From a virus (lineage: Duplodnaviria > Heunggongvirae > Uroviricota > Caudoviricetes), in the IMG/VR virus record IMGVR_UViG_2529292922_000015: DNA of 25,915 nucleotides; one strand, 5' to 3'. Made by a program: the position numbers. This document shows positions 10,832 through 13,570 of the stretch, one piece after another; positions within the stretch are counted from its first letter, which is position 1, and each line of letters starts with the position of its first letter.

Positions 10832-13570
10832 GCTGCTGCCTTAGCTTCTTCTTCGGCTTTAATCCGCGCCTGTTCCTCCTCATAATCAGTAAGAGGCTGG
10901 CGTGCCTTGGCTTTCAGCTCATCAAGGCGATCGCGCACTGTCTTGCGGTTGGCATCAATTAGCTTTGGAATTTCCTTCAGTTCAGCAACAAGGTCTTTGC
11001 CAAGACCATCGAGATATGTTTTCGTCTGCGCAACTTTATACGCCAGAGAAGCGATCTCCTTTCTGCCCTTTGCCGTTGTGATATCAGGCACAAAGGACAT
11101 AACTTCACGTTCAACCTTTTGAAGGATTTCTTCAATCTGGTCGGCAGACTGAAATACAGTCATTGCATTTGCTTTTTCAATAACAACTAAATCTGTTACT
11201 TCACTCATATATCCTCCATCAAAAAATTGCCCTCACATTGGAGGGCAAAGAAGATTTCCAATAATCAGAACAAGTCGGCTCCTGTTTAGTTACGAGCGAC
11301 ATTGCTCCGTGTATTCACTCGTTGGAATGAATACACAGTGCTTATTCGTACTAATAAAACACCCAATTTTCTGTTTCTTGGTTGTGTCCAAAGTTATATT
11401 CAATATCTGGTGTTGATGTATCAATATTCTTCATCCCATCAACAAGAGTTGATACAACAGCCAAATCTTGTTTGATTCTCATCAAATGGTATTTCTTTCG
11501 GCGCAATAAACTTTCAATGGCAAGTTTCTTCGTCGGGAATGCAAAAGATCTTTCTGCATTTTTTGCTACTTTCTTAATTGCATATCTATTTCTCCTTTGT
11601 TTCCATTCCTGTAACCACTGATTTGGTGCTGGTTTAAAATTAACAATCCAATGCGCAGGAACCAACCATGCATAATGCTCTGTCTGATGAAAAGCTATAT
11701 ATTGAAGTGCGAATATTTTGATCCCATCTTCTTCAACTGTCGCCTGGAATCTCCAGAAAACAGGCATTCCATCATGTTCAGTTTCTGATTCAGGAAAAGG
11801 TACGCTCCATGATTTTGTCATATCTCACCTCAAATAAGTGGTTTGCTGCCTAATTTCATTTTCTGGCGACCAACACAAGTCATCTTGCTGTCAGTTGTTT
11901 GGATTTCCGGTAGCCTGCCGCGTAAATGGCTACGTTTGGAAGACATACACCAGTTTCTGGTTGCTTATGTCCAAACTCATTCGCGTACACAATGGCCGCT
12001 CGCTCCAGATTGCGTCTGTATTCTTTCTGTTGCCAGATCACGTCCTGTGCTATGAACTTAATTGGCTTAGCGTCTTCTATGCGCTCAGGCGTTTCGTGAG
12101 TACCTTTAGCCTGAATCTGCGCTCTGCTTAGAGTAGGGCGGTGTAATACTTCTGAACTTATTGCTTCTTCGCGGGCCAGTACGCCGTTAGCTAATGCCTT
12201 TGCCTTTAAACGCTCACGACGACGAGAACGTGAATTGCCTTTGAACTGAGTTCTGCGTGTCATATAGACCTCCTGATGAACTTTGGTGGTGTGGTCGGTG
12301 GGAGACCCATTTCGACCTGTTTCGGCCTACTTCAATTCGGCAATAGTCCCGCAGGCCTCGCCGCTTTACGTGCGACATATTCCCGTCCATGAACCCTTCA
12401 CCACACCCCAAAGTTCACTTTGGTTATTGCGCTTTGTCAGCGCCGTAGATTCTTGCTTGAATCGTTGTATATTCACCGCCCTGGTGAGTAGTGCGTCCTG
12501 CTGATGTGTTTAGTATCACCGCCAGTGGTATTTGCGTCAACACCGCCAGAGATAATTTATCACCGCAGATGGTTATCTGTATGTTTTTTATATAGATTTA
12601 TTTTTTTGCAGGGGTGTGTGGCTTGGGAGGTGATCGAGAGATCTGAATTGCGATGTTTAGTGAGTTGTATCTATTAATTTTCAAATAAATACAATTGGTT
12701 ATGTGTTATTGGGTGAAGGGGATCGTGAGGTAAAGAAAACCCGGCGCTGAGGCCGGGTTGTGTGTTACTTAAGAACGAGTCCGTTTAAGGCATCAAGGAT
12801 TTTGGAAACATAACTTCCAAAAATGTAGGCGCAAAATGCGAACACGAAACTGACAACGACCGCAGATGCCTTGATGGTGATTTTTGCTGAGCTAATGCTT
12901 GTCTCAATACCTGACAGACGAGAATCTACAGATTTTATATCTGACTTTACTTCAGCGAGATCGCGCTTGATGTATTCAACATCAGACTCTAGCTTTGCAA
13001 CTCTAGCCTCAAGCATGTTACCTCCGCCGTTTCCTCCACCATGCCGTGAGTATGCATCATCAGTGGAATAGTGTCCAATTGGGCGAGATATGTTTTGATT
13101 TGGACGAAGCTGAGCAACCTTGTTATCTAAACTCATCGCGAACTGATCCTGTTATCTTCACGTCAAAAAACGAACTTTTTACATCAATTACTTCGCCTTT
13201 ATCAGGATTAACCAGTGATGCTCTAACTTCGAATATCCCAGGCTTGATAATTTTCACCCTTGGGAAGTTAATTCTCATAGAAGTTGATACGATGGTTTCT
13301 CCATCGTTGGCTTCTGCTACCGTAAAAAACTTATGGTTGGAGTACAGTTTTGTGTCAATTGGTATCGGTATTTCTTGAGCATTGAAAACCTCAATGCCTA
13401 TGGAATATTTTTTTGTAGCCTTAAGGCCGATAAAAAAAGCGCCAAATGATAGATCCACTTCATGGGAGTCTTTATCCATTTCATAGATAAGAACTGGAGT
13501 TACTGGGTTGCCTTCATCCATCGCAATCGGAATGATATAAGAAATACGTTCTTTAATCATTTACGTGTTA

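Follow-up and report, generated by a model that had tools for sequence, protein, structure and literature searches.

The interval behind the cI repressor gene of lambdoid prophages, served by the PRM promoter, is a home of abortive-infection genes, as an initial annotation of the DNA described here had also stated; rexAB of lambda and bstA of Salmonella prophage BTP1 are known cases (PMC8585504). The authors of the BstA study note the synteny that bstA shares with rexAB (PMC8585504), and that paper, citing Degnan 2007, describes the cI-N interval as a mosaic hotspot which also holds bstA. In 2008, genes 44 and 45 of phage epsilon34 were called 'like rexA and rexB' in position (PMC2629481). Here we describe what occupies this slot in a stretch of 25,915 nucleotides (the window) from a virus of the Caudoviricetes, IMG/VR record IMGVR_UViG_2529292922_000015, which carries an immunity region of the lambda type. 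The occupant is a pair of overlapping open reading frames (ORFs): ORF1, encoding a soluble all-beta protein, and ORF2, encoding a coiled coil followed by a single transmembrane (TM) helix. The pair belongs to a widespread, modular family found mostly behind maintenance repressors. We tentatively read it as an exclusion or abortive-infection module expressed in the lysogen and composed of a specificity unit and a membrane effector, a reading to which we give slightly less than even weight.

Alignment with lambda placed the junctions of the replacement exactly. Lambda homology ends at the cI stop (13572, corresponding to lambda 37231) and restarts at the rexB stop and tImm (12759, lambda 35826), and 812 bp stand here in place of the 1404 bp of rexA and rexB. 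The initial annotation had described the immunity region as lambda to the nucleotide. It is indeed lambda immunity, but identity is not exact: the cI-OR-cro block (window 13572-14596, lambda 37231-38255) differs from lambda at 21 of 1025 nt (97.95% identity), and identity is 88% on the OL-tImm side (12473-12759, lambda 35550-35826). Both genes had also been called markedly AT-richer than cI, which holds for ORF1 (37.2% GC versus 45.4% in cI), whereas ORF2 is a marginal case at 42.7%, much the same as lambda rexB (42.5%; rexA, 40.2%). The remaining outline of the locus was borne out. Two ORFs overlapping by 14 nt fill the rexA-rexB slot between exact swap junctions. ORF1, of 145 aa, begins 7 nt past the cI stop with no Shine-Dalgarno (SD) sequence and contains no hydrophobic segment. 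ORF2, of 123 aa or of 83 aa if read from an internal ATG, has a coiled coil and one C-terminal TM helix by heptad analysis, hydropathy and an AlphaFold2 (AF2) model, and downstream of the pair lies an intrinsic terminator homologous to tImm (hairpin 12759-12738, 8-bp stem with 6 GC pairs, then a T-run). The same 14-nt overlap is annotated for epsilon34 gp45/gp44 and is present in related IMG/VR loci.

The spacer between cI and ORF1 holds no recognisable SD sequence or terminator, so the two genes are probably co-transcribed and translationally coupled. No terminator was found in the operon region between cI and tImm, and 'Timm' is annotated at the equivalent place in phages HK544 and HK542. 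The 7-nt gap, the uninterrupted run to tImm and a layout like that of lambda cI-rexA-rexB-tImm support placing the cassette in the PRM-cI operon, with PRM as the presumed promoter of cI-ORF1-ORF2. From this position the pair would be transcribed in the lysogen.

ORF1 matched phrog_5893, a family of unknown function, over its whole length (E = 8.5e-65, positions 1-140 of 140). It had no match in Pfam, NCBIfam or PADLOC, RexA included, and none in a sequence search of the PDB. The AF2 model, built from a 19-sequence alignment, was a confident eight-strand all-beta fold (pLDDT 86.6, pTM 0.82). Searched against BFVD, it returned small uncharacterised phage proteins, and the Foldseek matches were weak (MD-1/MD-2, RhoGDI, GM2 activator and the Wzt carbohydrate-binding domain; E ~1e-4, TM-score ~0.5). 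XepA and YomS were sought among the top structural matches and were not found, and the parallel with the XepA-XhlA pair of Bacillus subtilis PBSX is a lead only. Hydropathy gave no hydrophobic segment, and no signal peptide was seen in the sequence. Against homologues at 72-76% identity dN/dS was about 0.08-0.10, and ORF1 is under strong purifying selection. We propose ORF1 as the specificity or regulatory partner of the pair.

ORF2 matched phrog_6136, likewise of unknown function, over its entire length (E = 3.6e-46, positions 1-120 of 120). In the AF2 model residues 1-39 were disordered and residues 40-122 formed a single helix, within which residues 41-92 keep a continuous heptad register with hydrophobic residues at 14 of 15 a/d positions. 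The sole TM segment comprises residues 92-110 (KD19 = 2.1). In the family alignments F106, G107 and Y109 are invariant within the type of C-terminal module that ORF2 carries, and almost no variation is seen there in the final 12 residues, KILDALNGLVLK (alignment A5). Since ORF2 has no signal peptide and about 90 hydrophilic N-terminal residues, this C-terminal tail is probably periplasmic, and the protein is best modelled as tail-anchored in the inner membrane with the N-terminal tail (N-tail), linker and coiled coil in the cytoplasm. Nothing significant was found for ORF2 in the curated families of Pfam, NCBIfam and PADLOC, RexB was not matched, and a sequence search of the PDB gave generic coiled coils only. 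As the initial annotation had it, the pair is thus unrelated to rexA and rexB at the level of these collections.

In architecture ORF2 is of the XhlA type, a short protein with a coiled coil and then a C-terminal TM helix, and many of its homologues are named 'hemolysin XhlA' by NCBI. Its score against Pfam XhlA (PF10779) was 19.3 bits (E = 0.0013), with a gathering cut-off of 34.7 bits; among 24 family members, 18 matched XhlA at E <= 0.01 (best 8.3e-6) and 19 matched FlaC_arch. We rejected the 'haemolysin' label, as it derives from a sub-threshold coiled-coil match. The label nevertheless bears on a different explanation, that the pair is a lysogenic-conversion factor directed at the host or its environment, with a membrane-active 'haemolysin', envelope or stress-fitness function in enteric pathogens. 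Close copies do occur in pathogenic strains, among them the enteropathogenic Escherichia coli (EPEC) strain E2348/69, and the weak Foldseek matches of ORF1 are to lipid- or glycan-binding beta-sandwiches. However, the match that gave the name covers only the coiled-coil part, neither protein has a signal peptide or other export signal, ORF2 would expose at most ~12 residues outside the cytoplasm, and the shuffling of partners and effectors described below would be typical of phage-phage conflict and not of host-directed factors. We consider a conversion factor very improbable.

Related loci, about 125 in total, were collected by scanning IMG/VR with an ORF1 alignment (51 loci) and with an ORF2 alignment (76 loci more). 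In 50 of the 51 ORF1 loci an ORF2 homologue overlaps the ORF1 stop, and the remaining locus is truncated; the pairing of a soluble with a membrane protein, already suggested by the initial annotation, is real and conserved, and pairing of ORF1-like with ORF2-like genes was shown to be obligate. This recurrence, together with the dN/dS of ORF1 and a pN/pS of 0.3-0.6 in the N-tail of ORF2, argues that neither is a chance ORF. An exhaustive profile search gave 19 proteins at E <= 0.001; large repetitive matches in this search were discarded as repeat artefacts. A distant branch at ~25% identity was found in Citrobacter, Enterobacter, Tatumella, Photorhabdus and Xenorhabdus, and the pair is kept in the homologues from Enterobacter, Tatumella and Photorhabdus. 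The Xenorhabdus ORF1-like gene stands alone beside insertion sequence (IS) elements.

In the large majority of the ~125 loci the module lies directly behind a maintenance repressor. The genes 5' of ORF1 in the ORF1-anchored loci fall into at least 13 repressor clusters, including lambda cI, the epsilon34 type, several other helix-turn-helix (HTH) plus S24 types and a Rac-type 143-aa HTH protein, and the gap between repressor and partner ranges from a small overlap to ~67 nt. Most loci from the ORF2 scan likewise have a repressor gene upstream, the exceptions being integrase-adjacent or in the tail region. The Enterobacter layout is Rac-type repressor, ORF1-like gene, ORF2-like gene; in Tatumella the pair follows an Arc/Mnt-like repressor, opposite a Bro-N antirepressor and within the tail region, in the manner of immI. 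Exceptions to the linkage are five integrase-adjacent loci (L137-L141), loci behind a DUF6246 tail-region gene, Photorhabdus, where the pair is near tail-fibre genes, and Xenorhabdus. The five integrase-adjacent loci have a zinc-ribbon partner and an ORF2-like gene directly after a tyrosine integrase, at the element edge. Edges of mobile elements are elsewhere a site of defence cargo.

The composition of these loci is modular. Partners of the coiled-coil/TM protein comprise beta-sandwich subtypes (phrog_5893/5881), small CxxC..CxxC zinc-ribbon proteins of several diverged types (for example phrog_4293 in the isolated Enterobacter phage ENT1) and a ~93-aa protein. Loci with an ORF1 of the A1 type all share the N-tail V.QLRPNQ(D/N).SR..G(H/Q)...(D/E)AY and a Gly-rich linker, and carry at least 6 unrelated coiled-coil/TM modules. 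Conversely, at least 5 partner types, the zinc ribbon included, are combined with the C-terminal module of the window (type a), and each has its own N-tail. Over 45 unique combinations, adjusted mutual information was 0.89 between partner and N-tail, 0.06 between partner and C-terminal module and 0.03 between N-tail and C-terminal module. This pattern identifies 'partner plus N-tail' and 'coiled coil plus TM' as separate units exchanged at the linker. The Gly linker is apparently the recombination joint between them, and the co-segregation fits a physical interaction of each partner with its N-tail. In phrog_3556 (276 positions), which is matched by the ORF2 variants of two loci (L042 and L051), positions 151-276 align to linker, coiled coil and TM helix; the N-terminal ~150 positions may represent a partner-like domain, which would make this PHROG a natural fusion of both genes.

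Tightly coupled, overlapping and co-occurring genes for a small membrane protein and a small soluble partner could also form an addiction or toxin-antitoxin (TA) module that keeps the prophage, or its immunity region, from being lost, with ORF2 as membrane toxin and ORF1, aided by the N-tail, as inhibitor. Cells in which the operon is lost or silenced would then die or stop growing. TA systems are present in lambdoid immunity regions (PMC8630535), and the solitary Xenorhabdus gene is placed by its IS elements as an orphan antitoxin might be. On the other hand, classical type II systems have a different gene order and include a DNA-binding antitoxin, which is missing here; neither TA nor PADLOC models were matched, and the partners are structurally unrelated while the putative toxin stays constant, which fits varied sensing better than neutralisation. 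A TA module seems improbable, though somewhat less so than a conversion factor; a TA system may at the same time act by abortive infection, and to that extent this explanation overlaps with exclusion.

A candidate second start follows the linker. In the window GGAGG (13025-13021) stands 4 nt ahead of the ATG of M41, and an SD-like G-run with an ATG after the linker is kept in nearly all of 46 unique relatives, with GTG in 3. Duplex energies with the anti-SD sequence were -9.5 to -13.4 kcal/mol in most relatives, compared with a background 5th percentile of -6.9 over all ATGs of the window. The frame of the N-tail is open in all 21 tail clusters, which together with its pN/pS argues that the long form of ORF2 is real. 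The second in-frame start is predicted, and two isoforms, long and short, are plausible. Such a dual-start layout would recall holin/antiholin genes such as lambda S105/S107. Within the N-tail coding region, 5' of the internal start, there is a weak sigma-70-like site, TGGACA-17-CATACT (13049-13077, minus strand). It scored 9/12 in the promoter scan, where the number of such sites in the region was not above that in shuffled sequence; its layout is reminiscent of PLIT before rexB, but the site itself is unsupported.

Occupation of the rex slot was surveyed in 5,426 complete E. coli genomes. Full-length lambda-type cI was present in 618 genomes and rexAB in 99, always at >= 99% identity; the cassette was found at full length in 14, and 2 more had ORF1 with a different ORF2 C-terminal module. 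With rexAB in only 99 of 618 and a published mosaic hotspot at this place, a non-rex occupant is ordinary. The initial annotation had treated the absence of rexAB as notable; the swap is real, but it is the rule rather than the exception, and the point of interest is this particular family. Four other lambda-cI loci (L069-L072) carried a 129-aa hypothetical protein (O157:H7), a P63C-domain protein, an NYN-domain protein and a 345-aa hypothetical protein.

Members of the family are also found in isolated phages. Closely related pairs follow a different repressor in epsilon34 (gp45/gp44), g341c (gp40/39) and NM-3; of the epsilon34 proteins, gp45 is a member of the ORF1 family (a type with homologues at ~74% identity) and gp44 has the N-tail and linker in common with ORF2. 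Two wild phages with lambda immunity have family members in the rex slot. In HK542, c105 (144 aa), a remote ORF1 homologue, aligned with the ORF1 profile (hhalign probability 92%, E = 6e-7) and is followed, ahead of Timm, by c104, a 206-aa coiled-coil/TM protein. HK544 has a 93-aa c104 and then c103 (183 aa), with a Gly/Asp-rich linker, a Met, a coiled coil and a TM helix. In the P22-like phage UPF_BP1, mnt is followed by a 94-aa gene and a 149-aa ORF2-like gene, opposite arc-ant. The UPF_BP1 gene at 1813-2070 (locus L152), annotated 'partition protein ATPase', encodes an 85-aa protein starting MARDDPHFNFRMP, which matches P22 Mnt; the record seems misannotated, and this gene is the mnt that heads the operon. 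According to its GenBank note, HK544 c104 is similar to ECs2991 of O157:H7 Sakai, and a protein of that name was found by liquid chromatography-tandem mass spectrometry in cultured O157:H7 (PMC3936929), a hint that gives indirect support to expression of the family in lysogens. The relatives in epsilon34, HK542 and HK544 are all annotated as hypothetical and have been in GenBank since 2007-2008. What was already known is thus their sequences and their rex-like position, while the anatomy of the family, namely the pairing, partner classes, N-tail module, Gly joint, internal start and attachment to cI, Rac-type and Mnt repressors, appears undescribed in the literature searched.

Exclusion is favoured by three features. 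The module follows maintenance repressors of many types and not one, the slot is the one known for rexAB and bstA (PMC8585504), and a recognition-like unit has diversified against a reused membrane unit, as in conflict systems. We infer expression in the lysogen, docking of the N-tail, the effector role at the membrane and phage exclusion itself, and a mechanism could run as follows. The cassette would be transcribed with cI from PRM up to tImm as an accessory operon of the lysogen. The partner would bind the N-tail and hold the coiled-coil/TM protein inactive until the complex is disturbed by a superinfecting phage, through one of its components or activities. ORF2 might then oligomerise and either compromise the inner membrane, in the manner of a holin or XhlA, or block a membrane step of infection, and the incoming phage would be excluded or its infection aborted. 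If both isoforms are made, one retaining the N-tail and one lacking it, they could determine how readily the device is triggered.

Several observations weigh against exclusion. The fold of ORF1 is generic, which leaves a sensor role as pure inference. The likeness of ORF2 to XhlA is below the Pfam threshold, and the unrelated coiled-coil family FlaC_arch matches as many members. Linkage beside a recombination-prone Gly-codon repeat could yield the same co-segregation of partner and N-tail, and GGA is not enriched among the Gly codons of the linker, so that its SD-likeness may partly be a by-product of encoding glycine. No functional study of these proteins was found in the literature by accession, locus tag or concept. 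The defence check proposed with the initial annotation was made by running PADLOC (PADLOC-DB v2.0.0, dated 2023) on both proteins and on variants: no model matched ORF1, ORF2 or ten variants, ORF2 giving only coiled-coil noise (CorA-like, E = 0.0039; LmuB, E = 0.034), nine variants giving no match and one giving noise (LmuB, E = 0.0018; PbeC, E = 0.0082). Other PHROG matches of the variants were only to families of unknown function. GiPD474, an ATPase, and the Tai systems are unrelated.

Further points against exclusion come from what PRM-linked genes do elsewhere. RexA binds CI and stabilises the lytic state, with RexB as modulator (bioRxiv 10.1101/2021.04.19.439022), and Hex of phage 434, made from the PRM transcript, is reported to prevent RecA-mediated autocleavage of the repressor (PMC3564112). 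The pair could accordingly serve the life cycle of the prophage itself, as a holin/antiholin accessory or switch modulator acting on the lysogeny-to-lysis transition, the efficiency of induction or the timing of lysis. A dual-start layout like that of holin/antiholin genes, if real, would suit such a role, as would the XhlA-like form of ORF2, XhlA being a lysis-cassette protein with the beta-sandwich gene xepA directly upstream (PMC6834076). However, the homology to XhlA is sub-threshold, the module is found behind unrelated repressors (S24 cI, Rac-type HTH, Mnt/Arc), which argues against a repressor-specific interaction, and its presumed promoter is a lysogenic one, shut off on induction, and not that of a late operon of lysis genes; for the close copy in E2348/69, ~9 kb separate the pair from the lysis genes, which are in the late region. 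The pair has also been retained despite an IS insertion in the PL operon of its prophage. A life-cycle role is in our view unlikely, less so than a TA module. If it is the pair's function, so that the pair tunes induction or lysis, it would bear on what PRM-linked genes do for the prophage.

Features of the operon and its surroundings are collected in Table 1.

Table 1. Coordinates in the window of the cI-ORF1-ORF2 operon, its parts and flanking control elements
Feature	Position	Strand	Basis
cI repressor gene, lambda type, 237 aa, first of operon	13568-14281	-	ORF list, lambda alignment
cI-ORF1 spacer, 7 nt (CACGTAA)	13561-13567	-	sequence
ORF1, 145 aa, soluble all-beta (Ig-like sandwich), phrog_5893	13123-13560	-	ATG 7 nt past cI stop
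ORF1/ORF2 overlap, 14 nt, ATGAGTTTAGATAA	13123-13136	-	sequence
ORF2 long form, 123 aa, phrog_6136	12765-13136	-	profile match, family alignments, AF2, hydropathy, heptads
ORF2 N-tail, residues 1-32, predicted disordered	13041-13136	-	motif V.QLRPNQ(D/N).SR
ORF2 Gly-rich linker GGGNGGGN	13017-13040	-	sequence; conserved G37/G38 in family alignments
ORF2 internal start codon, M41, 83-aa form if used	13014-13016	-	ATG conservation
ORF2 coiled-coil segment, residues 41-92	12861-13016	-	heptad analysis, AF2 long helix
ORF2 single TM helix, residues 92-110	12807-12863	-	KD19 maximum 2.1
ORF2 C-terminal tail, 12-13 residues, (S)KILDALNGLVLK	12768-12806	-	alignment A5
Intrinsic terminator, lambda tImm homologue; operon end and left swap junction	12730-12759	-	terminator scan
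OL3 12574-12558, OL2 12554-12538, OL1 12530-12514, PL (-35 TTGACG, -10 GATACT)	12512-12574	-	sequence, promoter scan
OR1-3/PRM/PR region between cI and cro	14282-14381	unstranded	inside 97.95% lambda block; lambda annotation
N-like gene, 127 aa	11880-12263	-	ORF list

The OL1-3 operators presumably match those of lambda exactly, and the promoter scan placed a PR-like site, TTGACT-17-GATAAT, at 14329-14357. The N-like antiterminator ORF is intact and resembles the H-19B/933W type and not lambda N. For a near-identical copy of this ORF in E2348/69, RefSeq gives only a 69-nt pseudogene fragment ('regulator, missing N-terminus'), probably an annotation miss; the cI copy in that strain is named 'LexA family protein'.

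The window has a mosaic origin. Over both flanks (1-7991 and 14696-25915) it is 99.5% identical to the ybhC-side prophage of E. coli O127:H6 E2348/69, on the lambda attachment side. Its centre (11351-15050) is 99.1% identical to another prophage of that strain, and the cassette is 100% identical to the copy there. The flank-matching ybhC-side prophage carries a different S24 repressor. This looks like an exchange of the immunity module between two related prophage lineages (block 7992-14695); no complete E. coli genome in the collection contained at least 80% of the window. An IS21-family element (8880-10829; istA 8964-9986 and istB 9983-10765, both on the plus strand) splits a 322-aa Glu/Ala/Lys-rich gene of the PL operon into halves at 8281-8907 and 10816-11208 (minus strand); the E2348/69 prophage at 2.62 Mb has this gene uninterrupted. 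Because of this insertion the prophage may be defective in early-left expression, with the cI-ORF1-ORF2 operon intact. The lipid A deacylase gene lpxR, mapped from the E2348/69 annotation to ~20774-21733 (minus strand), lies antisense between ninH and the Q antiterminator gene, and seems to be a moron of the nin region that modifies the outer membrane. Scans of all 25.9 kb for tRNA genes and for Rfam families at the gathering threshold found none; downstream of Q, the related E2348/69 prophage at 2.62 Mb has tRNA-Asn and tRNA-Thr.

A broader proposal is that the pair founds a large unrecognised class of prophage exclusion or abortive-infection systems in cI, Rac-type and Mnt operons of Enterobacterales and beyond, with interchangeable cytoplasmic recognition units (beta-sandwich, zinc-ribbon or ~93-aa proteins) and cognate N-tails, a Gly joint, interchangeable tail-anchored, holin-like coiled-coil effectors, and two isoforms from the internal start that set the threshold for firing. 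This is a doubtful proposition when taken whole, clearly less likely than exclusion by the pair itself. If exclusion is indeed the function, the rex slot and its Rac-type and Mnt equivalents would hold a second two-component family, commoner in the wild than rexAB, whose proteins have no counterpart in current defence catalogues. Its plug-and-play design would offer a tractable model of how recognition diversifies against a reused membrane effector, and genes left as 'hypothetical' in epsilon34, HK542, HK544, the O157:H7 Sakai Stx1 prophage and EPEC E2348/69 would be explained. Such modules would also affect the host range of therapeutic phages in E. coli, Salmonella, Klebsiella and Enterobacter.

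Among known systems, lambda RexA/RexB is like the pair in its slot after cI and before tImm/OL, in being presumably driven from PRM and in combining one soluble with one membrane protein, and the weak internal promoter-like site and internal start of the pair recall PLIT-rexB. Rex itself excludes T4 rII and other phages through membrane depolarisation. The two differ in sequence and profile, which show no similarity, and in the membrane protein: RexB has 144 aa and is polytopic, whereas the pair joins a 145-aa beta-sandwich to a protein with a long cytoplasmic coiled coil and a single C-terminal TM helix. The genes of epsilon34 (gp45/44), HK542 and HK544 are true relatives in an equivalent position, although their repressors and coiled-coil/TM modules differ, HK544 has a 93-aa partner and HK542 c104 is without the Gly linker. 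XhlA of PBSX, a membrane protein that PBSX reportedly requires for lysis (PMC6834076), shares the N-terminal coiled coil and C-terminal TM helix, and a beta-sandwich gene is again directly upstream (XepA, a C2-like sandwich; PMC6834076). XhlA belongs, however, to a late lysis operon with holin and endolysin in a Gram-positive element, whereas the pair is in a lysogenic repressor operon of enterobacterial prophages without an adjacent holin or endolysin gene.

BstA likewise lies directly downstream of a repressor, is highly expressed in the lysogen and mediates abortive infection (PMC8585504). It consists of one protein only, active where phage DNA is replicated, has a DNA-based self-immunity element, aba, and no membrane component, and shows no similarity to ORF1 or ORF2. 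By analogy, the closest system in logic is gp30/gp31 of the mycobacteriophage Butters, which, like the two-gene systems of Sbash and CarolAnn, is a prophage-expressed defence and joins a membrane protein with a second, interacting protein (PMC7542560). It differs in host phylum and genome position, no sequence relationship was seen, and the specificity and mechanism of the systems of Butters, Sbash and CarolAnn are likewise known only in part. The pair of the window is best placed in the repressor-linked 'partner plus linker-coiled-coil-TM' family defined here, of which it has both the architecture and the adjacency to a repressor, 7 nt after cI.

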